Numbered from the stretch's first letter, positions 3,758 to 56,702 are shown. The stretch is DNA of 64,000 nt from Candidatus Blackburnbacteria bacterium (GCA_016183565.1 JACPEJ010000001.1:358479-422478); one strand, 5' to 3'. Made by a program: numbers and translations. The notes: a model not told the origin generated them from the sequence alone.

Positions 3758-3812
3758 TTTCTTTGCCCCTTTTTCTTAATTGAATGTATAATCGTAGTAG
3801 TAGAGTTGCTAC

Positions 3813-5549: not shown

Positions 5550-5563
5550 TTCTTCTTGCTTTA

Positions 5564-10570: not shown

Positions 10571-10588
10571 ATTAGAATTTAAAAACAA

Positions 10589-19115: not shown

Positions 19116-21233
19116 CTACTCCCCGAAAGTGAAGATCCGGAGACCAATACTTGATAGGTCACAAGGATAATTTACAGGAGAAACTAGTCTTATATACTGA
19201 GCGTTATCTCCTGGAAAAAGAAAAACAAAATCTGCATTATATCCGGCTATTTCCCTCACAGAGAAATTATTTACACTCTCGTCTTTTTGAAAGTACTGAT
19301 CTCCGTCCGTAGAAATGTACACAGTTGCGCCAATTAACTTATTTTTACACTCATCCGAAGGAAAAGAAAAAGTCAAAGCCTTAAGCTTTTTTATTCTATA
19401 AAGCGAAATAAAAATTTCTTTTTTACCATCATAGGCAGAGTATGTTCTCTTGAATTGCTCACTTGTTCCTTCTATATTAAGACCTTCTTTAAGGTATTGC
19501 TTGTCATTTTTCCATATTTTTAAAACTGGAACACCATCCACTCTTACGGCATATACCTCGTTGAGAAAGTTATCTAAGTATTTATGTCTAAAAGTATTAC
19601 TGAATATATCTTGTCCAACAACAAGCGCCATTTGGTATTCTCCCTCTTGGTTGTAGCCGCTTCTGGAACCATTAGAAAAATCGATATCTTCTCGAAGAGA
19701 TAGGCGAGATATATTTTGTGCATTTCCAGAAACTAGTGCAAGTTTTGCTCTTAGTTCTGCATTTTGGTTTATCCACTTTACGCCTTGTAAGTAAGCGTTA
19801 CCGTAAGTATTTCCATATCCAGGGAAATCTTTTTCCGCTGCACCTTTTAGCCCTCCTATGAGAAAGTTAAAATAAACATTTTGGTTTGGATGTATTTTCC
19901 AAAGAGTCGAGAGTGTGGGTATAAAACCAGCTAAGATTAGAAGAGATACAATTAAGCTGATAATTTTTTTCTTTGGTCGTTGAGACAGAAAATACTTTGT
20001 CAGGATTTTAGCAATAAAGTTTCGCAAAAAAAGTGCGCCAACACTCGCTATCATTGCCATGGGTGCAACAAATTCCATAATTTGTCTTAACCCCCCATAT
20101 ATATTAGTTATTGAAAAAGTTACCCTAAGAATTGTAAAGTAAAAGAAAGTAAGCCAAAGAATAGTGACAGAACCTTTTTCCTTAAAACGAAAAACGCCAA
20201 CGATAGAACCTACAAGAAGCAGAAAAAGGGTAAAGGGGGGAATTGTATACAGGAAATATTTGATGCTAATAAGTTGTGTGCACTCTGTGAACCAGAATTT
20301 CGTTAAGGGAGAATGGGGACATGTTGGTCCGCCAATGTCTTTATAGTACATAACGACTTGATAAATTTTTTCTGCGGGATTAGGCCACAAAGCTGGCCAA
20401 GTCAGAAAGAAAACCAAAAATATGATTATTGGATAGATGGCAAGAGCAAGAAGCATTCTTTTTGAGAAGATCTGTTTTAGGCGGTGGTAGTTTGTGAATA
20501 GGTAGGCTGCAAACCAAGGGAAAAGAATAAATGGAGCAAATACAAAATTAAACTTTGTGCCGAACGATGCTCCTCCTGCTAACGCAGAGAGAATAAGGTA
20601 TAAAATCCTCTTTTTTGTAAATGACAGCCAAAAGAAATATAGAGAAATAATAAAAAACGTTGCCATTGGAGGGTCTTTGATATTAAAATGTTGTTCTGCA
20701 AAAAGAAGCGGAAGGGTGTAAATTGTTAGTACGGATATAATGGAAGCAAAGGTTCCGAAAGTTCGTTTTGCCCAAATAGAGACGGTTAAAGCCAGCAAAA
20801 ATGTGGTAAACACACTGTAGAGGTGATAACTGTCTATATCTTCGACCCAACCCAGATATTTGAAAAAGACTGTGTTGCTTGCCGCAAGCATCAAGTCACT
20901 AAAAGCAGGATGTCCGTAGGTGCCTTTTGCAACCCAGCTATTAAAGTCAAGAAGATTGCTTTCGTATTCACTAACACGCACTTTGCGATGTCTGTCGCAG
21001 ACTTCGCCCGTAGCCGCGTCTACGTGGGAGTTTAAATTATATTCACTTTTACAAAGACTGGGTAAATCGGAATAGTCCGTTTTATGAGATAAAATATAGC
21101 GTAAATAAGCTTGGCCGCGTGCAAAGTGAACTGGTGAATCCCAATTCATTCCATAGTCATATTGTGTTGTAAGGGCAACAATAAAAAACAGTATTGGAAT
21201 TAAAAAGGAGGAAAAGCGTTGGATTAAGGTCAT
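19116..21233 (-). CDS. large GT-C-fold-like polytopic membrane protein with a C-terminal extracytoplasmic domain (paralog A of an inverted pair)
   Basis: The N-terminus 'MTLIQRFSSFLIPILFFIVALTTQYDYGMNWDSPVHFARGQAYLRYILSHKTDYSDL' parallels the 25672 gene. 'NIYGGLRQIMEFVAPMAMIASVG' and 'NVYFNFLIGGLKGAAEKDFPGYG' are shared with it. ATG at 21233; the track starts at an upstream alternative start codon (21278). Confidence 0.55.
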   Translation of the reverse strand: MTLIQRFSSFLIPILFFIVALTTQYDYGMNWDSPVHFARGQAYLRYILSHKTDYSDLPSLCKSEYNLNSHVDAATGEVCDRHRKVRVSEYESNLLDFNSWVAKGTYGHPAFSDLMLAASNTVFFKYLGWVEDIDSYHLYSVFTTFLLALTVSIWAKRTFGTFASIISVLTIYTLPLLFAEQHFNIKDPPMATFFIISLYFFWLSFTKKRILYLILSALAGGASFGTKFNFVFAPFILFPWFAAYLFTNYHRLKQIFSKRMLLALAIYPIIIFLVFFLTWPALWPNPAEKIYQVVMYYKDIGGPTCPHSPLTKFWFTECTQLISIKYFLYTIPPFTLFLLLVGSIVGVFRFKEKGSVTILWLTFFYFTILRVTFSITNIYGGLRQIMEFVAPMAMIASVGALFLRNFIAKILTKYFLSQRPKKKIISLIVSLLILAGFIPTLSTLWKIHPNQNVYFNFLIGGLKGAAEKDFPGYGNTYGNAYLQGVKWINQNAELRAKLALVSGNAQNISRLSLREDIDFSNGSRSGYNQEGEYQMALVVGQDIFSNTFRHKYLDNFLNEVYAVRVDGVPVLKIWKNDKQYLKEGLNIEGTSEQFKRTYSAYDGKKEIFISLYRIKKLKALTFSFPSDECKNKLIGATVYISTDGDQYFQKDESVNNFSVREIAGYNADFVFLFPGDNAQYIRLVSPVNYPCDLSSIGLRIFTFGE

Positions 21234-21257
21234 GCTTGTACAAATAGGGCTTCGTAG

Positions 21258-21290
21258 TACCCTTAGACGTGGTATCATTATATACTAGTT
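21258..21290. promoter_or_regulatory. compact divergent promoter region for the 21233(-) and 21309(+) genes, with overlapping -10 elements
   Basis: The 75-bp intergenic space contains 'CATTATATACT'. This reads TATACT on the + strand (21281-21286) and TATAAT on the - strand (21277-21282). The -35 elements are weak. Confidence 0.3.
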
Positions 21291-25539: not shown

Positions 25540-25671
25540 CCTAAAAGGTCTATTTCTAGTTCCTTTGGGCTCCCTCTTGTTTTTAGTGATGGTGTTATTT
25601 GCCCTAAGTGGTTATGGTATTGGTTGGGATGAACCCCAATATATTATTCAAGGTTGGGCATGGGGAGGCAA

Positions 25672-27741
25672 ATGTTGAGTAACAAAGTTGTAGCTCTGTT
25701 TCTATCTTTTTTGTTTTTTATTTTGGGTTTAGCCACCCTATCGCACTATGGGATTAACTGGGATGCACCGAGCCACCTTATCCGAGGTCAGGCATATTTG
25801 CATTATTATCTGACAGGAAAAAAAGACTACACAGATATTGATCAATGGAATTTATATAGAGAAAAAGAAGAGGAGATTCGAATAAAAACTGCGCATGATA
25901 GTGTGCCAAGGTACAGACTTTATTTTCAACAGGTTGACACTATTTTTTTTAACCCCGATGTACCTAAAGATCAAGTTCCTCGAATAAGTATATACCAGAA
26001 CACAGGTAAGGATCTTAATGATGTAGTGGCGCATTATGACTATGGCCATCCTCACATAAGCGATGTTTTGTCTTCTGTATTTAATCTTGTATTTTTCCAA
26101 AAACTTGGCTTTTTAAATGACATAGACTCATATCGCGTTTATGGAGTTTTGCTCTCGAGCCTGCTTGTGGGCTTAGTATTTTGGTGGACTGCAAACTCAT
26201 ATGGGAAATTTTCTGGACTTGTTGCCGCATTGTCACTTTCCCTTTATCCACTTTTCTGGTCAGAATCGCACTTTAACAACGAGAAGGATATTCCACAGAC
26301 TGTTTATTGGAGTTTCCTGCTGTTTTCCGTGTGGCGTGGTATTACAACTAAAAGTTGGAAATGGATATTGACATCTGGGGTATTTTTTGGTCTTGCTCTA
26401 GGTAGTAAATTTAATGCCCTTTTTTCGATATTTGTCATTGTTCCATGGCTTACTCTGTATCTTGCTTCTAAGCGCAAGAGGTCCTTCTCTGTTGTCGCTT
26501 TTCTAAAAAGACACACTAAGTCTATTTTGGCTTTGGCTACTGCGCCAGTTTTAGGCCTCACCATCTTTTTTGGTACTTGGCCATATTTTTGGGTGGATCC
26601 GGTAGGTAAGATTACAAAAATGATAAATTTTTATGTAACTATAGGTATGGCTGACAATGTTGACCACCGCTTTCTTGGCCTGTTGGGGGTAAACACATAC
26701 CCGCTTCAGTGGATTTTGTATACTACTCCACTCGTGATCTTGTTTCTGTTTTTTGTGGGAGTTGGAGTAGCTGTGTCGAGATTGTTTCGGGAAGATAAAA
26801 TGCAGTCTTTGCTTTTTTTGCTATGGTTGACTGTACCCATAGCAAGAGTTACGTGGCCAGGTACTAATATATATGGTGGAGTGAGACAGATTATGGAGTT
26901 TATACCGGCCATAGCTATAATTGCGGGAGTCGGAGGAGGGCAACTTTGTAAGTGGGTAGGGGGTGGTTTGGGGAGGTGGGGAATTGGGGTGTATGGGCAG
27001 ACTTTTGGTGCTTCTCTTTTGATACTGGTGCTTTTTGTGCCGTTAACGCTAAAGCTTGTTGAGATTCACCCTAATGAGAATGTCTATTTTAATCCTTTAA
27101 TAGGGGGACTTAGAGGTGCTGAGGAACGGGATTTTCCGAGCTGGGGTGTTTCGTTTGGCGCCCCGTACAGAGAGGCTATTGAGTGGATAAATAAAAATGC
27201 TGAGCCAGGGGCAAAATTGACTCTCCCTGAGATATTGAGTAATATTCCGGGTGTATTTATTCGACCGGATATAGATTACGATTACAAAGGTGACAGTGGG
27301 TATCTTCAGCAAGGAGAATATGTGATATCACTTAGATTTGACGGGACTGAGAATCGGTCCTATTTTGACATGTACCTAGACAGAATGATTGAGCCGTTGT
27401 ACGAGATAAAAGTTGATGATGTCGCGATCCTCAAAATCTGGAAAAATGATAAAAGATATCTTAAAAAGGAGTGGAAAATTGAGAGCGTTTTGGATAAAAT
27501 CAAAGTTGTAAATAAAGACTCAGTTATTCTTTTTGACTTAGGCAAAGAGGTAAAACTGTCAAGGTTGGAATTGGAGTACGTAGAAAATTCCGCCTGCTCA
27601 GAGCTTTCTTGGGCTTATTTGATAGTTTCAAAAAACGGTAGAGACTGGGAGAGAGTTCCTGGAGTTTTACCAGAGGAGGTCAGGATCAAAGCCTTAGGTA
27701 TTCAGCCATCAGGAGGAAAGTTTATTGAGCCTTTCGCCTGA
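25672..27741 (+). CDS. large GT-C-fold-like polytopic membrane protein (paralog B, inverted relative to the 19116-21233 gene)
   Basis: 'INWDAPSHLIRGQAYLHYYLTGKKDYTDI', 'NIYGGVRQIMEFIPAIAIIAGVGGG' and 'NVYFNPLIGGLRGAEERDFPSWG' are shared with paralog A. GGAGG lies at 25664-25668 just upstream of ATG 25672; the track starts at TTG 25654. Confidence 0.55.
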   Translation: MLSNKVVALFLSFLFFILGLATLSHYGINWDAPSHLIRGQAYLHYYLTGKKDYTDIDQWNLYREKEEEIRIKTAHDSVPRYRLYFQQVDTIFFNPDVPKDQVPRISIYQNTGKDLNDVVAHYDYGHPHISDVLSSVFNLVFFQKLGFLNDIDSYRVYGVLLSSLLVGLVFWWTANSYGKFSGLVAALSLSLYPLFWSESHFNNEKDIPQTVYWSFLLFSVWRGITTKSWKWILTSGVFFGLALGSKFNALFSIFVIVPWLTLYLASKRKRSFSVVAFLKRHTKSILALATAPVLGLTIFFGTWPYFWVDPVGKITKMINFYVTIGMADNVDHRFLGLLGVNTYPLQWILYTTPLVILFLFFVGVGVAVSRLFREDKMQSLLFLLWLTVPIARVTWPGTNIYGGVRQIMEFIPAIAIIAGVGGGQLCKWVGGGLGRWGIGVYGQTFGASLLILVLFVPLTLKLVEIHPNENVYFNPLIGGLRGAEERDFPSWGVSFGAPYREAIEWINKNAEPGAKLTLPEILSNIPGVFIRPDIDYDYKGDSGYLQQGEYVISLRFDGTENRSYFDMYLDRMIEPLYEIKVDDVAILKIWKNDKRYLKKEWKIESVLDKIKVVNKDSVILFDLGKEVKLSRLELEYVENSACSELSWAYLIVSKNGRDWERVPGVLPEEVRIKALGIQPSGGKFIEPFA

Positions 27742-27844: not shown

Positions 27845-28585
27845 ATGATATTTACTGACGACACCATAAAAAGAATTAAGAAAGACCCCTTTAGAGTAAT
27901 ATTTAGAGCATTTAATAAATATATTTTTGGGACAATGCGTTACAAAAAAGGAAAAGGTTATGATGCCGCCTTGTATTGGCAGGATCGTTTTAGTAAATAC
28001 AAAGACTCAATAAAGGGACCTGGCGACGAAGGTTTAACGGAAAAGGAAAATTTAGAAATGTATAACCAAGCGAAAAAAACTTTCCTAAAATTTTGTAAGG
28101 CAGAGAAAATATCATTTACAAAGTCAAAAGTTTTAGAAATTGGACCGGGTACGGGTTTTTACACAGGGATTCTTAAAAACTCTGGGGTAAAAAATTACAC
28201 AGGTCTTGATATAACCGATGTGGCTTTTAGCAAACTAAAGAAAGAATACCCCTATTTTAGGTTTATTAAACGCGATATAACAAAATTTTCTCCCACAGAA
28301 AAATATGATGTTGTGGTTATGATTGACGTTATCGAGCATATAGTAGAGGAAGAGAAACTTAAAAAAGCCATGGAGAATATAAGCAGATCTCTTGGATCAA
28401 AAGGAGTTTTTATTCTTGCACCGATTATGAGGAACAGTAAAAAGAAGTTCTTTTATGTTAGGTATTGGACACTAGAAGAGCTTGAAGTAATTCTCAAAAA
28501 TCATAAGTTTAGCAAACCTATACGATTCCGGAATGGATATTTGGTATCTGTAAGGCATAGATACAACTCGTTTCAAAACTCATAA
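27845..28585 (+). CDS. class I SAM-dependent methyltransferase
   Basis: 'VLEIGPGTGFYTG' is motif I; 'YDVVVMIDVIEHIVEEE' and 'SKGVFILAP' follow. Confidence 0.65.
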   Translation: MIFTDDTIKRIKKDPFRVIFRAFNKYIFGTMRYKKGKGYDAALYWQDRFSKYKDSIKGPGDEGLTEKENLEMYNQAKKTFLKFCKAEKISFTKSKVLEIGPGTGFYTGILKNSGVKNYTGLDITDVAFSKLKKEYPYFRFIKRDITKFSPTEKYDVVVMIDVIEHIVEEEKLKKAMENISRSLGSKGVFILAPIMRNSKKKFFYVRYWTLEELEVILKNHKFSKPIRFRNGYLVSVRHRYNSFQNS

Positions 28586-28620
28586 ATTGGTCTTATTAAA
28601 TTTTTTGAGACGAGATTGGA

Positions 28621-28657
28621 GAAGTTGTTTTGAAACAGCTTCATAGTTCTTATTTTT
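28621..28657. terminator. putative bidirectional intrinsic terminator between convergent methyltransferase genes
   Basis: Stem GAAGTTGT(28621-28628), loop TTTGAA, stem ACAGCTTC(28635-28642), giving 8 bp with one G-U pair. A T-rich run TTATTTTTAC(28650-28659) follows. There is a 7-nt gap between stem and U-run, which is not ideal. Confidence 0.3.
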
Positions 28658-29396
28658 ACTTTGAAGGTTTTTGAGCAACTACTACAATACCAAGTCCAAA
28701 TGGTAGGTCGAAATAAGTAATTATTTTTGATTCCATAGACAAAAGTGATAATAAAATATCATTAAGTAGCTTGCTTTCAGAACTCACACCTGAAGAAATC
28801 TCTTCTTTGGGGGTAACGCTCTCTGCGAACTGTTTGATCACCGCTAGAGGTAAAAGAATCATATTTACATAGGAAATCCTTTTGACTTCAAAACCTGAGT
28901 TGATTATTTTTCTCTTAATTTCGTTGGTCGAGTACCGCTGTCTTGTGTGTACATGTTTATCATGATTGAGGTGCAACCATTTGTTTGCTGGTACTCTCAC
29001 GATGACAAGCCCGCCAGGTTTTAACACCCGATAAAATTCTTCTAGTGCTTTTGCGTCATTTACTTGTTTGTGGTAAAGAACATCGAGACTCACAATAAGG
29101 TTAAAGCTATCTTTTTTGAAAGGAAGTTTGTTTACCGATCCCTGCTTCACCCGCGCCCCTCTTTTTTTTGCATATTTGATCGCCTCAGTGTTTATGTCAA
29201 TTCCACAAACCTTCCCAAAGCGTCCCAATTTTTTAGCAAGAAGGCCTGTTCCACAGCCGGCATCAAGAATTTTTGCTTTAGATGGTGGAACTTTGAGATA
29301 TTTTTTGACAAGAGAAATTATTATATTGTGATTGCTTACATAGAAGAAATGGGAAGACTCGTTTTTATAGATGTTTTCGTATTCTGAGGTTTGCAT
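28656..29396 (-). CDS. class I SAM-dependent methyltransferase
   Basis: 'ILDAGCGTGLLAKKLGRFGKVCGIDINTEAIKYAKKRG', 'SFNLIVSLDVLYH' and 'VLKPGGLVIV'. Confidence 0.7.
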   Translation of the reverse strand: MQTSEYENIYKNESSHFFYVSNHNIIISLVKKYLKVPPSKAKILDAGCGTGLLAKKLGRFGKVCGIDINTEAIKYAKKRGARVKQGSVNKLPFKKDSFNLIVSLDVLYHKQVNDAKALEEFYRVLKPGGLVIVRVPANKWLHLNHDKHVHTRQRYSTNEIKRKIINSGFEVKRISYVNMILLPLAVIKQFAESVTPKEEISSGVSSESKLLNDILLSLLSMESKIITYFDLPFGLGIVVVAQKPSK

Positions 29397-29404
29397 GATT
29401 AAAC

Positions 29405-30127
29405 CTACCTAGAAGAATTATCAAATATCATCAGCTTAAGCCACAAAGCGCCAATATCTAAATAAGTTTTAATTATTTTTGACGGTCTAAAAAATTGCGA
29501 CTGTCCATATTTTCTGTCGTAATGATGTACAGAAACTTGGCGAAATACTGCCCCGGCCCTTTCTGCTTTCTTTGCAAGCTCTATACAGATTGAGCCACTA
29601 TTGGATTGAAGTTTTATTTTTTTGATGATATCTCGCCTGATTAATCTAAAATCGCAGTCTACGTCATATATTGGGAGCCAAAAAAGCCAGCGGTTTATGA
29701 ATCTATGCATATTACCGAAGAAAATTCGGTGTGGCACATCGCCTCTCCGCATCTTTATGCCATTTATAAAGCTAACGTCTGGAGTCATTAGGCTAAGAAG
29801 TATTGGCATTTCATTTACATCATATTGCCCGTCCCCGTCAGTATAAAAAACTAAATCCTTAGAAGCATTAGCGAAACCGCTTTTTAGTGCCCCACCGTAT
29901 CCGCGATTCTTTTTATGTGTTACTACTTTTAACTTCTTGTGTTTTTTGGCTAATTTCAATAGTACCTCTCCACTTTCATCACGTGATCCATCATTAACTA
30001 CAATAACCTCATGGTCTTTTGCAATTTTTGCTAGAGTATCGAATGCGTCTTTTACTAACCCTCCGATAGTTTTTGCGTCATTATAGCAGGGGAAAAATAC
30101 GGAGATACTTGTGGATTTTTTTGCCAT
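29405..30127 (-). CDS. GT2 polyprenyl-phosphate sugar synthase-like glycosyltransferase (GtrB/DPM1-like, soluble form)
   Basis: 'ISVFFPCYNDAKTIGGLVKDAFDTL', 'EVIVVNDGSRDESGEVL', 'VFYTDGDGQYD', 'GIKMRRGDVPHRIFFGN' and 'DVDCDFRLIRRDII'. The true ATG is at 30127 (M106 of the tracked ORF), overlapping the upstream gene's TGA by 1 nt. The first 105 codons of tracked ORF 29405-30442 lie inside the upstream gene. Confidence 0.65.
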   Translation of the reverse strand: MAKKSTSISVFFPCYNDAKTIGGLVKDAFDTLAKIAKDHEVIVVNDGSRDESGEVLLKLAKKHKKLKVVTHKKNRGYGGALKSGFANASKDLVFYTDGDGQYDVNEMPILLSLMTPDVSFINGIKMRRGDVPHRIFFGNMHRFINRWLFWLPIYDVDCDFRLIRRDIIKKIKLQSNSGSICIELAKKAERAGAVFRQVSVHHYDRKYGQSQFFRPSKIIKTYLDIGALWLKLMIFDNSSR

Positions 30128-31074
30128 CACTTGATAATTTCCTTGATGTTGGCAGAATAATCTATTTTGCCACGGGAGGCAAGCATCATTTCGGCAAGTA
30201 GCCCGGTTGATATAAGCTGAACTCCGACAATTATTAAGAGTATCCCTAAAATAAGGAGCGGTTGTCGACCTTGGACACCTCCTGTTGTTACCCTTAGATA
30301 AGTAATATAAAGACCAATCAGAAATCCAAAAAAGAAAGATATTAAGCCAAATGTGCCAAAGAAATGCCCAGGACGCCTGTTGTATCCGGTTAAGAAGAAT
30401 ATTGTTAAAAGATCCAAAAAGCCCTTGATATTTCTCTCCCAACCAAATTTAGAGATACCATGTTGTCTTGCTCTGTGTTCTACGGGGATCTCTGTTACGC
30501 GGAAAGCCTGTTTTACAGCAAAAACTGGGATGAAACGATACAGCTCTCCGTACAGGTTAAGGCTTTTTACAACTTCTTTTCGATATGCCTTAAATCCGCA
30601 ATTTATATCATGAAGCTTGACACCTGTCAGCAAGGGAGTTAAAAAATTATTCAAAATTCTTGAAGGAATTACTTTAACGGAAGGGTCAAACCTTCGCTTT
30701 TTCCAACCCGATACAAGATCATAACCCTGATCAAGCTTTGCAAGAAAATGTGGGATTTCGGAAGGATTATCTTGAAGATCTCCGTCAAGAGTAAGAACTA
30801 TTTCTCCTGAAGCTTTCTCAAAACCGACCTGAAGAGCTGCTGATTTACCAAAGTTTCCCCTAAAACGGATAACTTTTACATCTATGTCTTTTTTATGCAG
30901 CGCCTTCATTTTTTCAAACGTGCTGTCTGTCGATCCATCATCAATGAAAATTATTTCGTAGCTTTTCTTGAGCTTGCGAACAACAGACACGATTTCTTGG
31001 TATAAAGTAGGAATTGATTCTGCTTCATTTTTGGCGGGAATGATAAATGATAGGTCTGTAGATTTAAGTTTCAT
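30127..31074 (-). CDS. membrane-anchored GT2 polyprenyl-phosphate glycosyltransferase (ArnC/GtrB/CsbB-like)
   Basis: 'LSFIIPAKNEAESI', 'EIIFIDDGSTDST', 'VLTLDGDLQDNPSEIP' and 'DINCGFKAYRKEVV'. Two C-terminal TM helices: 'FFGTFGLISFFFGFLIGLYITYL' and 'LILGILLIIVGVQLISTGLLAEM'. Confidence 0.75.
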   Translation of the reverse strand: MKLKSTDLSFIIPAKNEAESIPTLYQEIVSVVRKLKKSYEIIFIDDGSTDSTFEKMKALHKKDIDVKVIRFRGNFGKSAALQVGFEKASGEIVLTLDGDLQDNPSEIPHFLAKLDQGYDLVSGWKKRRFDPSVKVIPSRILNNFLTPLLTGVKLHDINCGFKAYRKEVVKSLNLYGELYRFIPVFAVKQAFRVTEIPVEHRARQHGISKFGWERNIKGFLDLLTIFFLTGYNRRPGHFFGTFGLISFFFGFLIGLYITYLRVTTGGVQGRQPLLILGILLIIVGVQLISTGLLAEMMLASRGKIDYSANIKEIIK

Positions 31075-31125
31075 TCAAGCAAATTCTATCATTTCCTAAA
31101 GTGCGTTGCCAGCGTGATTATTTTT

Positions 31126-32376
31126 TTAGATAAACTTAATTTTTTTGGCTGCAACTGCGACCATTTTAAGAAGTAGCCAGCCATGGATAATACGATTGAT
31201 ATTGCTTTTACCATATTTTCTTTCTCTATATCTTACCGGTACTTCTATAATTTTTAAGTTTAATTTGGTGGCGCCAAACAAAAGGTCAAAGTCTCCGAAG
31301 GGGTCTAGTTCCCCAAATGTTTTTCTATTCTTTTCAATTTCTAAATAGTCTTTTCGAAAAAGAACTTTGGTGCCGCACAAAGTGTCTTTAATTTTTTGCC
31401 CTAAAAGGAAAGTGAAGGTGAGGCTAAATAATTTGTTGCCTAGATAGTTTAGAGATCTCATTGCTTGTTTGGGTACCGGATAAATAAGGCGCGAGCCATT
31501 TGCAAAATCGCAATGATTTTCTGAGAGTGCACGGTAGAACTTGATTAGATCAGAGGGAGGGACAGTTAGGTCTGCGTCAAGAATTATTAAAATATCATTC
31601 TTTGCTTTTTGGAAACCTAGGCGCACTGCGTCGGCTTTTCCTTTGTTTTTTTGTTTGCATAAAAGGGTCTTGAATTTTTTCGCGTTCATTATTTCTTTTT
31701 GTATTACGGCATAAGTATTGTCAGTTGAGTGTCCTTCTATAAATATAACTTCGGTTTTTTTCCCTAGATTTGGGATTTCTTTTAATAACTTTTTGATGTT
31801 ACCTGCTTCGTTGCGGGCTGGGATGATTATGGAGACCGAATAGTGTTTGGGTTGGGGTTTTAGACGGAATATTTGGTAGGTTACTAGACAAAGCTTGTTT
31901 ATTAGAGGTAGTTGTCCTATGAAGTTGTTTATTAGGGGTGAGAAGGATCCTAGGGGTATTGGTAGAAGAAGCCTTCTTCCTCTTTTTACCTCTTCGCACC
32001 CTTCTAGTTGGAAAATATTGTTAATGTCTTGTTGTGATAGCCAATTGGGTTCTCTTGGGTCTTTTTTTCGGAGACCAAAAAATGTAGCAAGGTCAAGAAT
32101 TGGTTTCCATAGAAAACTATAGCCAACTACCACGATGCGGCTGCGCGGTTTGCAGTATTTTTTTAGTTTTCCTACTGAGTTTTGTACATCTTCACTATAT
32201 GCCAAAGAATTTTGCAGTAGGAGGTAATCAGATTTTCCATTGGCTTTCTCTTCGCCGATTCTTGTTGAAGAATACCCTCGCGGAACGATTTGTTTAAAGA
32301 ACCTTTCCAGATCTTTCTGGTAATAATCTGCAAAGATATTCATCTTGTTGTTTTTGTGGTGATCCACTATTATCAT
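31126..32376 (-). CDS. GT2 polyprenyl-phosphate sugar synthase-like glycosyltransferase with a ~170-aa N-terminal extension of unknown function
   Basis: The C-terminal 245 aa read 'VSIIIPARNEAGNI', 'EVIFIEGHSTDNT', 'ILIILDADLTVPPSD', 'GSRLIYPVPKQAMRS' and 'KDTLCGTKVLFRKDY'. The N-terminal region 'MNIFADYYQKDLERFF...RIVVVGYSFLW' has no GT motif. Confidence 0.65.
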   Translation of the reverse strand: MIIVDHHKNNKMNIFADYYQKDLERFFKQIVPRGYSSTRIGEEKANGKSDYLLLQNSLAYSEDVQNSVGKLKKYCKPRSRIVVVGYSFLWKPILDLATFFGLRKKDPREPNWLSQQDINNIFQLEGCEEVKRGRRLLLPIPLGSFSPLINNFIGQLPLINKLCLVTYQIFRLKPQPKHYSVSIIIPARNEAGNIKKLLKEIPNLGKKTEVIFIEGHSTDNTYAVIQKEIMNAKKFKTLLCKQKNKGKADAVRLGFQKAKNDILIILDADLTVPPSDLIKFYRALSENHCDFANGSRLIYPVPKQAMRSLNYLGNKLFSLTFTFLLGQKIKDTLCGTKVLFRKDYLEIEKNRKTFGELDPFGDFDLLFGATKLNLKIIEVPVRYRERKYGKSNINRIIHGWLLLKMVAVAAKKIKFI

Positions 32377-32393
32377 ACGTAGTATACAAGTTC

Positions 32394-33239
32394 ATGCAAA
32401 AGGGTCTAGTGTCGGTAATTATTACAACCAAAAACGAGCAAGATGTTATTAGGGATTTGCTTTCGAGTATAAAAGAGCAAAGTTACGAAAAATTCGAAAT
32501 CATTGTGGTTGATAACAATTCTACGGATAAAACGCGGGAGATTGCTAGAAAATATACAAAAAAAGTTTACACAAAAGGGCCGGAGCGTTCAGCGCAGAGG
32601 AATTATGGAGTTGAGAACGCAAGTGGAGAATATGTGCTTATTTTAGATGCAGATCAACAGCTTGCGCCAACGATTCTGCAGGAATGTGTGGATCAGTTTG
32701 AAAAGGACTCTACACTTGGTGCTTTGGTGATACCGGAAAAATCTTTCGGTAAAGGATTCTGGACGCAATTTAAAGTGTTTGAAAGGGAATTTTATGTTGG
32801 CGAGGATGATATAGAAGCTGCACGATTTTTTCAAAAAAGTTTGTTTGATAAATTTGGTGGTTATGACCTTTCGATTACCGGACCCGAGGATTGGGATTTA
32901 CCACTGAGAATGAGGAAGGCAGGTGTAAAAATTGGCCGGATTAAAAGTTTTATTTTGCACAATGAGAGGGTTTTCAACCCCTGGAAATCCGCGAAAAAGA
33001 AGTTTTATTATGCCAAAGGTAGCCGTGAGTACCTGAGAAGGCATCCGGAGAAAGCTTTTACACAGGGTAACCTTCTTTTCAGGAATGTTTTTTTTAGAAA
33101 GTGGAGAAGGCTTGTAGCAAACCCATTTTTAGCGTTAGGTATGTTTAGTATTAGAGCGCTTGAGATGAGCGGTGCTCTGGTAGGTGTAATATATTCTGTC
33201 GTGTGTCCGTTAAGCAAAGTTAAGCATTACATTTTTTGA
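32394..33239 (+). CDS. GT2-family glycosyltransferase
   Basis: 'VSVIITTKNEQDVI', 'EIIVVDNNSTDKTREIA' and 'VLILDADQ'. Only 17 bp separate it from the divergent upstream gene. Confidence 0.65.
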   Translation: MQKGLVSVIITTKNEQDVIRDLLSSIKEQSYEKFEIIVVDNNSTDKTREIARKYTKKVYTKGPERSAQRNYGVENASGEYVLILDADQQLAPTILQECVDQFEKDSTLGALVIPEKSFGKGFWTQFKVFEREFYVGEDDIEAARFFQKSLFDKFGGYDLSITGPEDWDLPLRMRKAGVKIGRIKSFILHNERVFNPWKSAKKKFYYAKGSREYLRRHPEKAFTQGNLLFRNVFFRKWRRLVANPFLALGMFSIRALEMSGALVGVIYSVVCPLSKVKHYIF

Positions 33240-34462: not shown

Positions 34463-35152
34463 ATTGTTGTGATTCTTATAGACTTTCTTATACCTTGCCT
34501 TAACCAACAACCTTTCCATGGCTTCATCTGTCAGTATATCAGCCTCGACACAAACTATCGTAGGTCTAAATTTCCCCCAATCGTTACTTTTTAAAACCTC
34601 AAGATCGTATCCCTCAACATCCACACTTAAAAAATCAATTTTTTTGTTTTTGCAATATTCTTTGAATATTTCACTTAGTCTTGAAACTTTTATTCTTGAA
34701 GTCTCAACTAGCTTAAATCCTTCCTTTTTATAATTCTCTGCGGCTTTTTTCGAAAAAGTTGAAAGTGTTTCCGGTTCAAACTTAAAATACTCAAGTTTTC
34801 CACTTTTGTTTGCAATCCCGAGGTTTAAGTTTGTGTCTCTGGGACGCGAGTTATAGAATTTCTTAATTTTTCGAGGATCTGGTTCAATATTTATTCCTGT
34901 CCAACCGCGTGCATAAAACCTCTTTGTGTTGCTGAGTCTTGTAGGATTGTATGCGCCCACATCAACGTAAAACCCAGATTTTCTATTTCCCAACAAGTTA
35001 TCGATCAAAATATCCTCTCCGTTTTGACTAAACGATTTTTGAAGAAACCCTCTTTTTAACATCAGAATCTCTCCGATTAAGTACTGAAATAGTCTCATTG
35101 GGCCGTACAGTTTTAAATAGTTGTAAGATTTTAGAATCATCGAGATTTTCAA
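34436..35152 (-). CDS. FkbM-family methyltransferase
   Basis: 'GFYVDVGAYNPTRLSNTKRFYARGWTGINIEPDP' and 'IDFLSVDVEGYDLEVL' are FkbM hallmarks. TTG start at 35152 with an internal ATG at 35140. Its 3' end overlaps the convergent GT4 gene by 27 nt. Confidence 0.7.
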   Translation of the reverse strand: MKISMILKSYNYLKLYGPMRLFQYLIGEILMLKRGFLQKSFSQNGEDILIDNLLGNRKSGFYVDVGAYNPTRLSNTKRFYARGWTGINIEPDPRKIKKFYNSRPRDTNLNLGIANKSGKLEYFKFEPETLSTFSKKAAENYKKEGFKLVETSRIKVSRLSEIFKEYCKNKKIDFLSVDVEGYDLEVLKSNDWGKFRPTIVCVEADILTDEAMERLLVKARYKKVYKNHNNLIFLLKKQ

Positions 35153-36222
35153 TAATGCGTATGCAACTGATAGTCTCTACATATTTGGCTAATTAGTTGG
35201 GGTCCTTCGAAGATAATACCTGTTATTAGTTGGATTAGGTCTGCGCCAGCGGAAAATTTCTCCAGGGCGTCTTTTGTATTAAACACGCCTCCGCAGCCAA
35301 TGATTGCGACATTGCCCCCAAACTTTTTACGTGTATGGGAAATGAGGTGGTTGGCACCTTTTGTAGTCGGTTTTCCACTGAAATTGCCTTTGAGGTTAGC
35401 GACATTTAAAATTTCGTTCTGATCGAAAGCCCGATTTTCTCTGTTTTTGACTAAGTTAGAAAATATGAAGCCACTGATTCCCTGGGTTAAAGCTGCCTCT
35501 ACTAACAAGTCGCTTTTTTTAGCGTCAATCTCATTGGGCATTTTTACAAAAATGGGCTTTTCCATACTAAGAGAGGTAACCTCTTTGACGAGATTTTTGA
35601 AATTTTGTACCTCGATAAACGACTCGGTCATGTTGGTATTTGGACAGCTTATATTTAGTTCGAAATATTTAATGTATTTTTTCTTTTTAAAGATATCAAA
35701 AGAAAATGTATAATCATCAATAGCTTTGTTGATTGTGTTGACTTTTGGACTGTTGGTACTGCCTATGCTTATTCCCACTGTGTGGCCCTGCAGGTCTTTT
35801 TTATCGAGCCTTTGAGCTACTGCAATGGCGCCTTCTGATTTGAAGCCCTTGTTAACTAATATTGACCTTGATTTAGGGAGTCTTACCAATCTTGGCTTAG
35901 GATTTCCTTCATAAGGTTTTGCTGTAACTGTACCAACTGTATTAAATCCAAAGCCTATGTACTTTAAGACTTTTGCCAGATGTCCATCGTAATCAAAACC
36001 TGCTGATAAACCGGTCGGGTTTTCAAAATCTATGCCAAGTACTTTCCTCTTTAAGGCTGGGTCTCTAAAGGCAAAGAGCCAAGATAGTAGACTGTTTTGG
36101 TTTTCTAGATTCTCTCCGAGCTTTGTGATTGTATCGTGTACAATTTCGGCATCTATCTGAAAGGCAATTGGTCTAAAGAGGTTTTTGTATAAAAGGGTTG
36201 CTATGTGACTTTTGTAATTCAT
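35149..36222 (-). CDS. pyrD: dihydroorotate dehydrogenase (class 2, quinone-type)-like flavoenzyme
   Basis: 'GIDFENPTGLSAGFDYDGH', 'NTVGTVTAKPYEGNPKPRLVRLPKSRSILVNKGFKSEG', 'ISCPNT' and 'IIGCGGVFNTKDALEKFSAGADLIQL'. ATG at 36222 overlaps the upstream TGA (ATGA). Confidence 0.65.
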   Translation of the reverse strand: MNYKSHIATLLYKNLFRPIAFQIDAEIVHDTITKLGENLENQNSLLSWLFAFRDPALKRKVLGIDFENPTGLSAGFDYDGHLAKVLKYIGFGFNTVGTVTAKPYEGNPKPRLVRLPKSRSILVNKGFKSEGAIAVAQRLDKKDLQGHTVGISIGSTNSPKVNTINKAIDDYTFSFDIFKKKKYIKYFELNISCPNTNMTESFIEVQNFKNLVKEVTSLSMEKPIFVKMPNEIDAKKSDLLVEAALTQGISGFIFSNLVKNRENRAFDQNEILNVANLKGNFSGKPTTKGANHLISHTRKKFGGNVAIIGCGGVFNTKDALEKFSAGADLIQLITGIIFEGPQLISQICRDYQLHTHY

Positions 36223-37628
36223 GGTTGAAATTTCTTGAGGACATTTTTCCCGACTCTTGCAGCATTGGCCATTATTGTTAATGTTGGTGGTTTTGCGGGC
36301 AATACTTTCCATGTTGAGGAATCGGCAATGTAAATTCTTTTGGCTTGGTGTAACCTCCCTTTTGAATCTGTTGACAGTTTACCTTGCTTAGATTGAAAAG
36401 AAACCCCGCCAGCGTAATGTGAAGTGACATTGCTTGTGATCGTTTTCATTGGAAGTAGCCCAAAAGACTGAATTTTTCTGTAGATCTTTTTCAGTTCCTC
36501 TTTGTGCTTTTTAATCTCCCTATCTGTTGTATGTGATGATACTTCTAAAACACCTATATCGCACTTTTCCTTTTTTAATCTACAGAAACTCTTATTTGAT
36601 TTAAATGTTGGAAAACGTACGTCTACTATTACCAGGTATGGTGCGATTATTGAAAAAAACAAAGAAGCAAGTGGCTTTGGTAAAGGAATATATTGAAGAG
36701 CCAAATCTTGCGCAAGAGGGTTACATCTATAAAACTGGACGAAAAAAGAATTTAAGTCTTGGTCAAGATCATTGCAAGTTAGTGAAACTTGGCCGAGGCT
36801 AGCTATATTATTCTGGCGTCTTTTTAGTAATGTTTGGGGGTGTAAGCATACAAGCATTGTGTGCCCTTTTGTCAAGAAAGGAACCTGGTAATTATAAAGC
36901 CTAAAGCTTTGCAAGAGAATTCTTGTGGTGTTAATGGCACCTGCTGCCAAAATTAAATAACGTGATTTAATATACGATTTTTCTTGACTCTCAATCGAAA
37001 TACTCTCGATTTCTACGTGTTTGTTTTTATCTTTTACTTTCAGAACCAATTGTTTGGGTATATAGGTAAAGTTTTTGTACTTTTTTAAATCTTCGATCAC
37101 ACTCTTAGTACGGTAAGGATATGCAATAGGTAGTCTATAAACTTGATTCTTTGCTTTTTTCAAGATTAGTTGTCCATGTAAATCAAGCTGTGGTTTAGTT
37201 TTAAGGTTTATGCGCTTTGCGATCTCTTTATATTCTTTTTGAATCTCTAGAGCTGGAAGACCAGTCTCAGCGAGCTCTGAATCTGTGAAATAGTCACAAA
37301 TGCCGTGCCAAATTTCTGACAAGCCACCCTTTGCCAAACTTTGGATGATCTCAATATTGCTTTGAACTTTCAGAAGTTGGTAAGTTTTGGTAAAAACATA
37401 ACCACTTTTTATTAAGAGATCATACGGGTTGCTTTTGTTGTGTAGTTTTTTGTTTATAGGTTGGTTATCTTGCTTTTTGCTGTCTAACCCGCCGTCTATA
37501 ATTGCAACTCGCAATCCTGCTTCAACTAGAGGGTATGCTGCGTGTACTCCCGCCGGGCCTGAACCCACAACGATCACATCATGGAGAGTGTTTGGCTTAG
37601 CTGTAGAATGGCCCGAATTGTGTAGCAT
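36219..37628 (-). CDS. GMC-family FAD-dependent oxidoreductase
   Basis: N-terminal 'VIVVGSGPAGVHAAYPLVEAGLRVAIIDGG' is the GxGxxG FAD site. The C-terminal 'HYAGGVSF...RIYIADSSTWKVLPAKPPTLTIMANAARVGKNV' is the GMC substrate-binding and active-site His region. Confidence 0.6.
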   Translation of the reverse strand: MLHNSGHSTAKPNTLHDVIVVGSGPAGVHAAYPLVEAGLRVAIIDGGLDSKKQDNQPINKKLHNKSNPYDLLIKSGYVFTKTYQLLKVQSNIEIIQSLAKGGLSEIWHGICDYFTDSELAETGLPALEIQKEYKEIAKRINLKTKPQLDLHGQLILKKAKNQVYRLPIAYPYRTKSVIEDLKKYKNFTYIPKQLVLKVKDKNKHVEIESISIESQEKSYIKSRYLILAAGAINTTRILLQSFRLYNYQVPFLTKGHTMLVCLHPQTLLKRRQNNIASLGQVSLTCNDLDQDLNSFFVQFYRCNPLAQDLALQYIPLPKPLASLFFSIIAPYLVIVDVRFPTFKSNKSFCRLKKEKCDIGVLEVSSHTTDREIKKHKEELKKIYRKIQSFGLLPMKTITSNVTSHYAGGVSFQSKQGKLSTDSKGRLHQAKRIYIADSSTWKVLPAKPPTLTIMANAARVGKNVLKKFQP

Positions 37629-41558: not shown

Positions 41559-42274
41559 TGGCCATCTTAAAAAAACTCTTCCCATTTTTAAGAAACGATG
41601 AAAGGAGAGAAATTTGGGTTTGCCAAAAACTGGCTTCAATTCCAAAGAGGGAAAAAATCTTAGATGTTGGTGCAGGAGAGTGTCGATATAAAAAATACTG
41701 CCAGCATTTGCTCTACAAAAGCCAAGACTTTGGACAGTATACAGGACAGGGCGACTATTCTGGTCTGCAGACTGGTACATGGGATACCTCAAAGATTGAT
41801 ATAATCTCTGATATAACAAATATTCCCGTTTCAAGTAGTTCTTATGACAATATATTGTGCACTGAGGTTCTTGAACACATACCATATCCCGATATGGCAA
41901 TAAAAGAGATATCAAGAATTTTGAAAAAAGGTGGTAGACTTATTTTGACGGCTCCATTTTGCTCGCTAACTCACATGTCGCCCTATTTTTACTGCACTGG
42001 ATTTAGTATTAGTTGGTATAATCGAATCTTAAAAGAAAATAAACTAGACATTGTTGAAATGGAGGCAAATGGGAATTTTTTTGATTTTGTATCTCAGGAA
42101 CTTGCTCGTTTGCCTCTTACGCTTAAAAAGTATTCCTTCTTGGGGCTTCTGGCGCTGATTTTATACATGCTTCTACTACCGATAATTCTATTGGTTTCTT
42201 TACTTTCCTACCTGGATAAAGGCTCAGAAAAGCAGCTTTGCTTCGGGTGGCATGTCTTAGCTAAAAAATGTTGA
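41558..42274 (+). CDS. class I SAM methyltransferase with a C-terminal TM anchor (paralog of the 23537 gene)
   Basis: 'ILDVGAGECRY', 'CTEVLEHIPYPDMAIKEISRILKKGGRLILTAPF', and the C-terminal 'LLALILYMLLLPIILLVSLLSYL'. TAATG overlap with the upstream gene. Confidence 0.65.
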   Translation: MAILKKLFPFLRNDERREIWVCQKLASIPKREKILDVGAGECRYKKYCQHLLYKSQDFGQYTGQGDYSGLQTGTWDTSKIDIISDITNIPVSSSSYDNILCTEVLEHIPYPDMAIKEISRILKKGGRLILTAPFCSLTHMSPYFYCTGFSISWYNRILKENKLDIVEMEANGNFFDFVSQELARLPLTLKKYSFLGLLALILYMLLLPIILLVSLLSYLDKGSEKQLCFGWHVLAKKC

Positions 42275-43899
42275 TTAATACTTTAAAAAAATTGCTACCT
42301 TTTCTATCACTCGCAGTGGTAGTAGTTTTTGTTTTTAAAGATTTGCCGCAAACTTTCTATCAGCAGGACGAGTGGAACGGGTTGGGGCTAGCCCTTGCTG
42401 AAGGGTCGAGATCCATTTTGAATGGTGTCCAAAGTGTTATCAGTATTTTCCTTGGTAAGGGACGGTTGATATCTAATGGGATTTTTTATTTATTCCTCTA
42501 CGGGTTCCCTTTTCAGAATTCTCAAATGGCAATTTTTGCTATTTTTTTGCACCTGATTGCAACATCTCTAGTATATTTTCTTGTAAATAGATTTCTCAAA
42601 AATTCCACTATTTCATTTTTAGGAGCGCTATTTTTTGCTGTGAACTCAGTCTCACATGGTGCTGTTACCTGGCCTTTTGTTGCAACAAGCGCTGTGGGGT
42701 CTAGTATTTTTGTTCTTTTAGCAACACTTTTTTTCTTTAGATATATAGATACCACTAAGACAAAGTGGTTATTTCTAGCAGGTCTGTTGCTTTATCTCTC
42801 TTTGTGGTTTAAAGAAACCGGACTCTACATGTTTATTTTCCTTCCATTTGCAACACTTATCTTTAAGAAGTACGAGCCCTTAATTTTTCTGAAAAAATTT
42901 TGGTTGTTTCTACTGCCATTCCTATTAATTGTTGGTTATAGAGTTTTGGAACTTCGCCTTAGAATAACAGGCTCAAACCTTTATATCACAGGTAACAACG
43001 ACAACTTCTTTTTAACCTTAATAATTCGCGCGATTTTATATCCTCTTACTTCTTTTTCGCTAATGTTTGTGCCAGGAAATCACTTTATAGAATTTGCCAG
43101 AGAAGTAGTGCATGATAACTACCCATTTTTTGCCGGTGCTCCCAACTTTGTATTAATCGCACAATCTGCAATTTTAGATATCCTTGCCGTAGTTCTGACA
43201 GGCTTCATTATTTTTGTAATCTTTTTATTTTTAAGGAAAGAGAAGTCTGAAAACATTAATATTGTTATATTCTGGTTAGCATTCTCGCTCTTTAGTTTTA
43301 TTCCTTACATTGTACTTGCTAAAGATTTTTCATACCTTGAGTCGAGATATTACTATGTTTCGGTCGCAGGCGGGTCTTTTTTGCTAGCATGGTTGCTTCA
43401 AAGGCTTAGACAAATTATTGGGAAGGTAGGATTTTTGGTTTTTGTTGCACCGCTTTATGTGTTTTTTCTCTGGTGGCATGTGAATACAGTAAGGGCCGCT
43501 ATCTCTGAGCAGGTGGTGTTAAGCAATATACGAAATAATTTTATTATCCAGTTAAGAGAACAGCTGCCCACGCTGAATGCTAAAAAAAATATCTTTTATG
43601 TTACTAGTGATAAAAATTACTGGGCGGATACAAATATGCTTCCTTTTCAGCAGGGTTCGGGATATACTCTTATGGTCTTATATTACTATTCCGGAAAAAT
43701 ACCAAGTGAGTTTTTAAAAAATGGGTATCTATTTGAGATCGGGAGTCAAGGATACAAGGAGTCGGGCGATTTAGGCTTTGGTTTCTTCTGGAATAAAGAA
43801 GAACTTACAAAAGCTATGGAAACCCACAAACTTCCTGAAAATAGTATAATTTACTTAAGTTACAATTCCAAAAAAGAAAGTGTGACTATATCTAAATGA
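42268..43899 (+). CDS. polytopic membrane protein, GT-C-like (first-loop 'QDEWNG' acidic motif)
   Basis: 543 aa with about 12 TM helices. 'FYQQDEWNGLGLALAEG' comes after TM1. C-terminal soluble domain. Confidence 0.4.
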   Translation: MLINTLKKLLPFLSLAVVVVFVFKDLPQTFYQQDEWNGLGLALAEGSRSILNGVQSVISIFLGKGRLISNGIFYLFLYGFPFQNSQMAIFAIFLHLIATSLVYFLVNRFLKNSTISFLGALFFAVNSVSHGAVTWPFVATSAVGSSIFVLLATLFFFRYIDTTKTKWLFLAGLLLYLSLWFKETGLYMFIFLPFATLIFKKYEPLIFLKKFWLFLLPFLLIVGYRVLELRLRITGSNLYITGNNDNFFLTLIIRAILYPLTSFSLMFVPGNHFIEFAREVVHDNYPFFAGAPNFVLIAQSAILDILAVVLTGFIIFVIFLFLRKEKSENINIVIFWLAFSLFSFIPYIVLAKDFSYLESRYYYVSVAGGSFLLAWLLQRLRQIIGKVGFLVFVAPLYVFFLWWHVNTVRAAISEQVVLSNIRNNFIIQLREQLPTLNAKKNIFYVTSDKNYWADTNMLPFQQGSGYTLMVLYYYSGKIPSEFLKNGYLFEIGSQGYKESGDLGFGFFWNKEELTKAMETHKLPENSIIYLSYNSKKESVTISK

Positions 43900-47061: not shown

Positions 47062-47167
47062 GTGGGGATATTATAGTTGTTCGACAGAGATCAGTCAAGT
47101 TCTCGGTTTGGATTACGGAAAGCGCCTGGGTACCTAAAGGTGGGTGCCAAATTGAGGTGGTAAATAG

Positions 47168-51085: not shown

Positions 51086-51086
51086 T

Positions 51087-56592: not shown

Positions 56593-56663
56593 GCCGTTGG
56601 TGGCTGTCCTCTCACTATTTGTTCGTACTGAGAAAGTTGCGAAGAGTATTGAACTTATTTTTT

Positions 56664-56691: not shown

Positions 56692-56702
56692 TCAAGTATA
56701 TT

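Follow-up and report, generated by a model that had tools for sequence, protein, structure and literature searches.

What would a bacterium with three neighbouring genes that all resemble synthases of polyprenyl-phosphate-linked sugars use them for? The question is raised by a stretch of DNA of 64,000 nucleotides, hereafter the window, from Candidatus Blackburnbacteria (GCA_016183565.1, JACPEJ010000001.1:358479-422478), a lineage of the Microgenomates group within the Patescibacteria or Candidate Phyla Radiation (CPR). The window makes up about 9% of a 686-kb contig and contains, on its minus strand, the consecutive genes C, B and A, followed by the methyltransferase gene MT1 (Table 1). Our answer, which draws on sequence comparison and structural models, is that the three probably belong to the polyprenyl-phosphate glycosyltransferase (Pren-P GT) lineage within glycosyltransferase family 2 (GT2), the clade of dolichyl-phosphate mannose synthase (DPMS/DPM1), GtrB and ArnC, that they diverged from one another long ago, and that they would act as Pren-P monosaccharide synthases by the mechanism of these enzymes, supplying the glycosyltransferases of the GT-C type that are encoded around them.

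The listing of open reading frames (ORFs) shows a close-packed run at 28656-32343 with the gene order C, B, A, MT1. Gene A starts with an ATG at 30127, the first base of which is the last base of the TGA of gene B, so that the two genes overlap by 1 nt; a 345-aa ORF for gene A (to 30442) was rejected as an artefact of the ORF listing, in which the first possible start is taken. The ORF of gene C extends to 32376 (416 aa), and its start at M12, giving 405 aa, is favoured by the NCBI call and by homolog alignment. MT1 follows 8 bp downstream of gene A and closes the run. The four genes look like one transcription unit; a scan of 28300-32700 for promoter and terminator consensus sequences gave counts not above those of shuffled controls. 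The C-B-A gene order was found on two metagenome assemblies.

Table 1. Features of the window, with positions counted from its first nucleotide; genes for which a single position is given are designated by it (SAM, S-adenosylmethionine; TM, transmembrane; EPS, exopolysaccharide)
Feature	Position	Strand	Description
Gene C	31126-32343	-	405 aa; N-terminal vestigial class I methyltransferase-like domain and DPMS-like GT2 domain; no TM helix
Gene C, N-terminal domain	31834-32343	-	about aa 1-160
Gene C, D-x-D	31561-31578	-	DADLTV
Gene B	30127-31074	-	315 aa; full-length GT2 of the ArnC/GtrB type of Pren-P GT; two C-terminal TM helices
Gene B, D-x-D	30769-30786	-	DGDLQD
Gene B, TM helices	30187-30369	-	about aa 236-262 and 268-296, from the hydrophobicity scan
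Gene A	29405-30127	-	240 aa; soluble ArnC-like GT2 of the Pren-P GT type
Gene A, D-x-D	29822-29839	-	DGDGQY
MT1	28656-29396	-	246-aa class I SAM-dependent methyltransferase; Pfam Methyltransf_11 2.4e-22
Gene D	16608-17396	+	262 aa; Pfam GT2 3e-24 (86.2 bits)
Gene D, variant D-x-D	16890-16907	+	DAGMEI
Gene E	50279-51085	+	268 aa; weak DPMS/AglJ-like GT2
Gene E, motif replacing D-x-D	50627-50644	+	DGNNKD
MT5	51063-51650	+	class I methyltransferase; Pfam Methyltransf_11 3e-16
PMT/PMT_2 GT-C genes above cut-off	2201, 3813, 7191, 8900, 10589, 19116, 25654
Tandem array of five paralogous PMT/PMT_2 GT-C genes (2201, 3813, 7191, 8900, 10589)	2201-12277	+
GT-C gene (PMT_2) nearest to the A/B/C run	25654-27741	+	695 aa; convergent with the run; PMT_2 4e-13; 8 hydrophobic segments
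GT-C gene (PMT_2)	19116-21278	-	720 aa; PMT_2 7.5e-6, 26.7 bits
GT-C candidate	42268-43899	+	543 aa; PMT_2 26.1 bits against a cut-off of 26.1; 8 hydrophobic segments
GT-C candidate	48294-50252	+	652 aa; PMT_2 26.0 bits; many hydrophobic segments
Weaker GT-C candidates	5564, 14154
Wzx-like (Polysacc_synt) flippase candidate	15349-16611	+	PF01943 4.7e-25; only flippase-type gene recognised in the window
Other GT2 genes, not of the Pren-P GT type	12280, 32394, 38854		best match EPS-type models

An earlier note on this DNA had described three consecutive minus-strand GT2 genes of the polyprenyl-phosphate-sugar synthase type. The genes are present as described, and all three pass the Pfam GT2 model PF00535 above its cut-off, with 2.3e-25 (89.9 bits) for A, 2e-33 (115.9 bits) for B and 2.7e-24 (86.4 bits) for C. 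Classification with hidden Markov models and against the PDB agrees with the assignment made there and places them nearest to ArnC, PgfS, AglJ, DPMS and GtrB, not among processive or unrelated soluble GT2s. Gene B matches the NCBIfam models for ArnC (181.9 bits over 7-297 of 316), PgfS (155 bits over 8-306) and AglJ (99 bits), is 34% identical to Escherichia coli ArnC over 290 aa, and in a PDB sequence search finds ArnC at 8e-48 (residues 8-296, both TM helices included), GtrB at 3e-28 and DPMS at 5e-20. The ArnC model matches gene A with 76.3 bits over 5-212, next to AglJ and the haloarchaeal dolichyl-phosphate (Dol-P) hexose transferase, and the best PDB match of A is ArnC as well (7.6e-17, residues 7-213). 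For gene C the NCBIfam match is AglJ, with 96 bits across the whole GT2 part, and a phmmer search of the PDB gave Pyrococcus furiosus DPMS at 1.7e-13 over residues 180-393 of the 416-aa ORF. Since A, B and C share only 25-34% pairwise identity, they are ancient paralogs, and a recent duplication as their source is ruled out. For the other GT2s of the window at 12280, 32394 and 38854, the alignment with A-C and with ArnC and GtrB of E. coli is confined to the N-terminal ~100 residues.

In the cryo-electron microscopy study of ArnC, the D-x-D signature is 100DADLQN in ArnC, 94DADLQD in GtrB and 89DADLQH in P. furiosus DPMS (PfDPMS), the acceptor-phosphate residues R128/R137/S141 of ArnC correspond to R117/R131/S135 of PfDPMS, the donor-phosphate arginine R205 corresponds to R202, and two amphipathic juxtamembrane (JM) helices are part of the family signature (PMC12690121). 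We assigned the equivalent residues by MAFFT alignment with E. coli ArnC and GtrB plus a DPMS segment, and by HMMER alignments. The D-x-D-x-Q signature is kept in A and B. The equivalents of R128/R137/S141 are K/K/S in B, K125/R134/G138 in A and R/R/N in C, the first arginine of C standing in a GSR motif as in DPMS, and that of R205 is an arginine in all three (R205 in A). The basic residues for the acceptor phosphate and the donor arginine are thus kept in A, B and C, the serine in B only. In A and B every motif stands at identical residue numbers. The motif 'D..CGFK/DFRL' quoted in the earlier note is also present, as DINCGFKA in B, DVDCDFRL in A and DTLCGTKV in C, together with D-x-D in all of them. 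The acceptor segment is of the ArnC/GtrB type, '(K/R)xxRxD', in A and B, and of the DPMS type, 'GSR/GSK', in C and in two further GT2 genes of the window, D and E, so that two subclades are represented.

The three architectures that had been described, a soluble form, a form with two C-terminal TM helices and a form with an N-terminal extension, proved real. In a Kyte-Doolittle scan, hydrophobic segments among A-C occur in B only (about 236-296), where they align with TM1 and TM2 of ArnC, and gene C has an N-terminal domain of ~170 aa; TM helices are absent from A, C, D and E. The alignment of gene B also runs through JM1 and JM2 of ArnC. For A and C, AlphaFold2 models were built from family alignments (predicted local distance difference test, pLDDT, 80.7 for A and 86.2 for C) and compared with the PDB by Foldseek. 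The top matches of both GT-A folds were ArnC, DPMS and GtrB, with a root-mean-square deviation (rmsd) of the gene C model from these three of 3.1-3.5 Å over 237-250 columns. Helices are modelled at the JM1 and JM2 positions in A (132-148 and 215-239, low confidence there) and in C (293-314 and 384-403); a hydrophobic-moment scan for such helices gave no discrimination, the control GT2s being equally high. Gene B would be membrane-anchored by its two TM helices, and the TM-less A (ArnC-like) and C (DPMS-like) would reach the membrane via amphipathic helices or a partner.

Alongside the family placement, residue conservation, fold and synteny observed here, a mechanism after ArnC, GtrB and DPMS can be proposed. 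Each enzyme would bind a nucleoside diphosphate sugar via the D-x-D motif and a divalent metal at the cytoplasmic membrane face, and the conserved lysine and arginine residues would hold the phosphate of undecaprenyl or another polyprenyl phosphate at the mouth that the two amphipathic JM helices form. The polyprenyl-phosphate monosaccharide made in this way would, once flipped, be the donor for PMT_2/ArnT-like GT-Cs that glycosylate extracytoplasmic targets. The lipid acceptor, the sugars, the flipping, the pairing with GT-Cs and the different products of A, B and C are inferred by homology with the characterised systems.

All characterised GT-C enzymes use lipid-phosphate-linked donors (PMC11127046), thus a repertoire of GT-Cs needs Pren-P-sugar synthases, and the presence of at least nine PMT/PMT_2 GT-C genes in the window makes it plausible that A-C supply lipid-linked donors to nearby GT-Cs. 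Pfam scans of all window ORFs of at least 150 aa gave these GT-Cs along with eight GT2, six GT4, at least seven methyltransferases, one Wzx-like gene and sugar-nucleotide genes, which makes the window an almost pure glycosylation island. The GT-C proteins that the earlier note had named as recipients of the lipid-linked sugars were recovered, seven above the Pfam cut-off, two at the cut-off and two weaker; another five polytopic membrane proteins are without a Pfam match. The five paralogous genes of the tandem array match one another with phmmer E-values from 1e-16 to 1e-91 and look like a locally amplified GT-C family, with the gene of an unrelated 12-TM PTPS_related membrane protein (5564-7201) interspersed among them. 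The GT-Cs at 25654-27741 and 19116-21278 are likewise paralogous (phmmer 1e-114), and this pair of ~700-aa proteins flanks a block with GHMP kinase, epimerase/dehydratase, methyltransferase and GT4 genes.

Several observations weigh against this reading. The next tier of fold matches for A and C consists of the soluble, non-lipid enzymes GpgS, MpgS and WrtF at E 1e-9, about four orders of magnitude behind, and the juxtamembrane region of the A model is poor (pLDDT 52-66, rmsd ~10 Å to ArnC). Every NCBIfam score falls well short of its equivalog cut-off, which leaves no basis for transferring a sugar specificity; for the ArnC equivalog NF007986 the cut-off is 529 bits, which neither B (182) nor A reaches. 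At the active site, the serine at the acceptor site (S141 of ArnC) is an invariant glycine in gene A, and in gene C, which keeps both aspartates, a threonine replaces the metal-binding glutamine. Gene C adjoins B-A in the source lineage only: its match list shares only the source contig with those of A and B, hence the triple is lineage-specific, and 80 C-family loci from GTDB genomes contained no B or A orthologs. Moreover, A-family genes adjoin polytopic membrane proteins in 11 of 49 loci, which is not above the local background, and an examination of all unassigned ORFs of the window yielded no flippase gene of the GtrA, SMR or MATE type. Among its small ORFs with several TM segments, a GtrA-like flippase could be encoded by one alone, a 121-aa ORF at 60187-60552 (plus strand), which has three hydrophobic segments and no Pfam match and lies in an otherwise empty 316-bp gap.

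The genomic context of A and B in relatives bears on how the two enzymes might work together. Orthologs of B that share 62-71% identity with it and have C-terminal TM helices stand directly upstream of A orthologs in five loci (L085, L087, L092, L105 and L117), which come from Daviesbacteria, another Blackburnbacteria and three metagenome contigs. The spacing there is -3 to +6 nt, mostly 1 or -3, and an MT1 homolog then follows in four of the five (not in L105). A further Microgenomates contig (L086) has B at a distance of two genes from A, and the top-120 matches of A and of B include 25 on same-sized contigs, among them contigs of 2.2-4 kb. The order B-A-methyltransferase thus recurs across Microgenomates. 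Of 44 A-family loci, 19 have an MT1 homolog or other methyltransferase directly beside the A-family gene, and 29 have one no more than 2.5 kb away. In distant A-family loci (48-67% identity), A is often followed by a nicotinamide adenine dinucleotide-dependent enzyme of dehydratase/epimerase fold, a DegT aminotransferase (PF01041, 8e-120) and a methyltransferase. Such a setting for amino sugars, similar to that of the Arn genes, was seen in L088, L095, L099, L129, L133, L134, L140, L157 and L165, but the window itself does not have it. In L151 and L164, A is translationally coupled to a PMT_2 gene that stands before it with an overlap (-3 nt), and relatives of A and C are often near PMT_2-type or other polytopic membrane proteins. 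A PDB search with MT1 for a hint of its substrate returned generic class I methyltransferases only.

The conserved and translationally coupled B-A-methyltransferase unit could also mean that only B is a true polyprenyl-phosphate-monosaccharide synthase, while A, and possibly C, extends or modifies the lipid-linked product and the neighbouring methyltransferase methylates it, so that the genes would build one glycan and not provide three donors. There is a precedent in Haloarchaea, where AglG, AglI and AglE add further sugars after AglJ. The lack of TM helices and of the acceptor-site serine in A would suit such a role, as would the frequent methyltransferase beside A; nevertheless, we regard it as unlikely. 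Gene A keeps both basic residues for the acceptor phosphate, as in ArnC and DPMS, together with the donor arginine, the models that it matches best, and across the full domain, are those of Pren-P monosaccharide synthases, and the AglG model NF041394 gave no match at E<=1e-3. Nor does a short protein without TM helices fall outside the clade, as such Pren-P GT families exist (226 positions in PpgS and 213 in the haloarchaeal Dol-P hexose transferase).

The same coupling raises the possibility that A and B form one hetero-oligomeric enzyme in which the TM-anchored B tethers the soluble A, comparable to mammals, where DPM3 tethers the catalytic DPM1. The 1-nt stop/start overlap, the B-A order in at least six loci, the shared same-sized contigs and the collinearity of the two paralogs, with their motifs at the same residue numbers, are all in line with such a complex, and ArnC itself is a tetramer in which the TM bundle and the C-terminal hairpin hold the subunits together (PMC12690121). 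On the other hand, B is two genes from A in L086, and a B ortholog is absent in most distant A loci. We consider a heteromer rather improbable, though it would be compatible with A and B both being Pren-P monosaccharide synthases. It is most doubtful that A and/or C are soluble GT2s acting on non-lipid phosphorylated or small-molecule acceptors in the manner of GpgS and MpgS, or on a cytoplasmic protein or glycan, with no relation to GT-C supply, because, for all the missing TM helices of both proteins, the GpgS, MpgS and WrtF fold matches at E about 1e-9 and a weak Osmo_MPGsynth match in one C-family member, Pren-P GTs come first by both sequence and fold, GpgS sequence matches are limited to the N-terminal ~100-130 residues, a long, putatively amphipathic helix forms the C-terminal end of both models where JM2 would be, and among the surrounding genes those for GT-C, Wzm/Wzt and envelope glycans prevail.

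We return to gene C as a putative Pren-P monosaccharide synthase and to its N-terminal extension of 170 aa. The extension noticed earlier does exist, and what it is can now be stated differently: by homolog alignment it is the decayed remnant of a class I methyltransferase domain belonging to a broadly conserved methyltransferase-GT2 fusion family. Taken alone, the domain gave no Pfam match even at E<=10, and the SAM-binding motif I (E/D-x-G-x-G-x-G) is absent from gene C; the methyltransferase homology is visible only through full-length relatives. The fusion family is very large, as all of the 8000 candidates that were scored proved significant and at least 599 loci remain when one genome per species is counted, and its members are 46-58% identical across Anaerolineales (Chloroflexota), Bacteroidota, Verrucomicrobiota, Cyanobacteria and CPR. 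Relatives of 450-473 aa have Pfam methyltransferase domains at the N-terminus; a 463-aa member from Verrucomicrobiota shows the canonical motif I 'VLEAGCGIGD' and matches five methyltransferase Pfam models, and one member carries the source name 'type 12 methyltransferase'. Gene C belongs to this family, yet it and the aligned Microgenomates relative P0021 have lost ~45 residues including motif I, while the remaining domain is well conserved; other close Microgenomates relatives are similarly short (392-423 aa). The high confidence of the gene C model (predicted template modelling score 0.85) suggests that the remnant is kept as a structural domain. As far as our searches reached, no characterised member of the fusion family was found.

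The homologs of gene C (loci L005-L084, e.g. L052:9731-11122) often adjoin a second methyltransferase, Wzm/Wzt-like ABC transporter genes and genes for polytopic membrane proteins. A separate methyltransferase is near the C-family gene in 24 of 80 loci, further neighbours include FkbM methyltransferases and PMT/PMT_2 proteins, and a polytopic membrane protein is adjacent in 32 of 69 loci against ~21 expected, a modest enrichment. We also considered MT1 as the split equivalent of the fused methyltransferase domain in a Rosetta-stone relationship and rejected this, the similarity being generic (22 bits). A methyltransferase is fused in the C family, stands beside A in many loci and overlaps the end of gene E, and on this basis we hypothesize, with considerable reserve, that in Microgenomates and more widely Pren-P GTs teamed with methyltransferases could build methylated Pren-P-sugar donors for expanded GT-Cs, the soluble A perhaps also as a B-tethered hetero-oligomer. 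As far as searches of the literature reached, there is no description of lipid-linked methyl-sugar donors of this kind or of a bacterial Pren-P GT tethered by a paralog.

The earlier note counted at least five such synthase genes in the window, including further DPM1-like genes at 16608 and 50279. Five DPMS/ArnC-like GT2s can indeed be recognised, but only A, B and C carry both aspartates of the D-x-D signature: D and E both have PfDPMS as their best PDB match over the whole catalytic domain (4.5e-15 over 6-209 for D, 1e-6 over 31-239 for E), but their D-x-D motifs are non-canonical, the second aspartate being absent in both. Gene E passes the Pfam GT2 cut-off with 30.7 bits and matches the NCBIfam AglJ model with 38 bits over 31-260. 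The variant motif of gene D is kept as DAGMD in a 72%-identical ortholog and is therefore a family trait, not decay. The start of gene D overlaps the Wzx-like gene by 4 nt within a GT2/GT4/Wzx block, and D could equally be an ordinary repeat-unit transferase. Gene E is located between the GT-C candidate gene at 48294, which ends 26 bp upstream, and MT5, which overlaps its end. This setting mirrors the GT-C and methyltransferase genes near A, but the GT-C gene nearest to A (25654) lies beyond MT1 and MT2 and on the opposite strand.

A comparison with known systems shows how far each likeness extends. Gene B aligns with ArnC, the undecaprenyl-phosphate 4-deoxy-4-formamido-L-arabinose transferase (PDB 9bhc, 8vxh and 9hwj), end to end, including the JM and both TM helices, and A over the catalytic domain; both share with it the DxDxQ signature, the basic residues of the acceptor site and the donor arginine, and the dehydratase-fold enzyme, DegT aminotransferase and PMT_2 gene of distant A-family loci are reminiscent of the Arn pathway. 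They differ from ArnC in scoring below the equivalog cut-off, A further in its lack of TM helices and in the glycine at S141, and among the window's proteins the Pfam scans gave no formyltransferase, aminotransferase or deformylase domain resembling ArnA, ArnB or ArnD. With a score below the cut-off and no arn (arnBCADTEF) context, B is not an ArnC ortholog. Microgenomates are generally regarded as lacking lipid A. With the three-component systems of GtrB, CsbB and PgfS, which are synthases of undecaprenyl-phosphate-linked glucose or GlcNAc with a GtrA flippase and a GT-C partner (PMC11127046, PMC11092751), the locus shares the arrangement of a GT2 domain with two JM and two TM helices in gene B (GtrB, PDB 5ekp) and the proximity of many GT-Cs; as in GtrA/GtrB/GtrC systems, synthases and GT-Cs are encoded together, here five candidate synthases and at least nine GT-Cs in 64 kb. 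In contrast to these systems, the window has no GtrA-like, SMR or MATE flippase, and it has several synthases and many GT-Cs, not one of each.

PfDPMS (PDB 5mlz), DPM1 and AglJ are the closest counterparts of C, D and E, for which PfDPMS is the best PDB match over the whole catalytic domain and with which they share the 'GSR' acceptor motif; the gene C model superposes on 5mlz at 3.1 Å over 250 columns. PfDPMS, however, has four TM helices and C, D and E none, C has the additional pseudo-methyltransferase domain and a threonine for the glutamine, and D and E lack the second aspartate. Genes A and D share their short, soluble architecture with the TM-less Pren-P GTs, i.e., mycobacterial PpgS (NF058614) and the haloarchaeal family NF041391, the models of which match A, B and D at E 1e-10 to 1e-14, but the scores of 38-53 bits against cut-offs of 370-375 rule out orthology. 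A small membrane protein is the partner of PpgS, and no gene for such a partner was identified in the window. Since short TM-less families of Pren-P GTs are already known, the architecture of A is not new. The enzymology is expected to follow the ArnC/GtrB/DPMS paradigm, and the finding extends a known kind, within which gene C with its dead methyltransferase domain is a variant of the fusion family worth noting.

Other genes of the window deserve mention in their own right. A dihydroorotate-dehydrogenase-family protein (PF01180, 9e-56) and an oxidoreductase of the flavin adenine dinucleotide/GMC-like type are encoded at 35149-37628 (minus strand) by ORFs that overlap by 94 nt. The middle of the island is an odd place for pyrimidine metabolism; the pair recurs in a relative (L001) and could act as a redox pair on a sugar or lipid-linked sugar. 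Directly after the GT-C candidate at 42268-43899, a sugar-nucleotide module at 43896-46380 (plus strand) comprises a HAD phosphatase, two nucleotidyltransferases and a small cupin. The stretch at 46-48 kb has the top G+C content of the window (0.43 vs about 0.37) and, at 46360-48073 (minus strand), encodes a 233-aa protein without Pfam match and a GDPD-family glycerophosphodiester phosphodiesterase; it may have been inserted from a foreign source or be a unit with a function of its own. Two DUF5667 proteins of ~187 aa, each with an N-terminal hydrophobic segment, are encoded at 18529-19098 and 62504-63064 (plus strand), where the TM scan gave one segment and two overlapping segments, respectively, and a 1192-aa, 11-TM protein at 56619-60197 (plus strand) has a weak DUF5667 match. 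The DUF5667 proteins may be glycosylation targets or envelope proteins.

CPR bacteria have tiny genomes and an episymbiotic lifestyle, and their surface chemistry, which is likely central to host attachment, is almost uncharacterised; as far as our searches of the literature reached, no description of an expansion of Pren-P GTs or GT-Cs in CPR was found. The leads most worth pursuing are the recurrent methyltransferase pairing and the conserved B-A coupling. The B-A-methyltransferase unit and the methyltransferase-GT2 fusion family provide concrete, clonable entry points into this surface chemistry.

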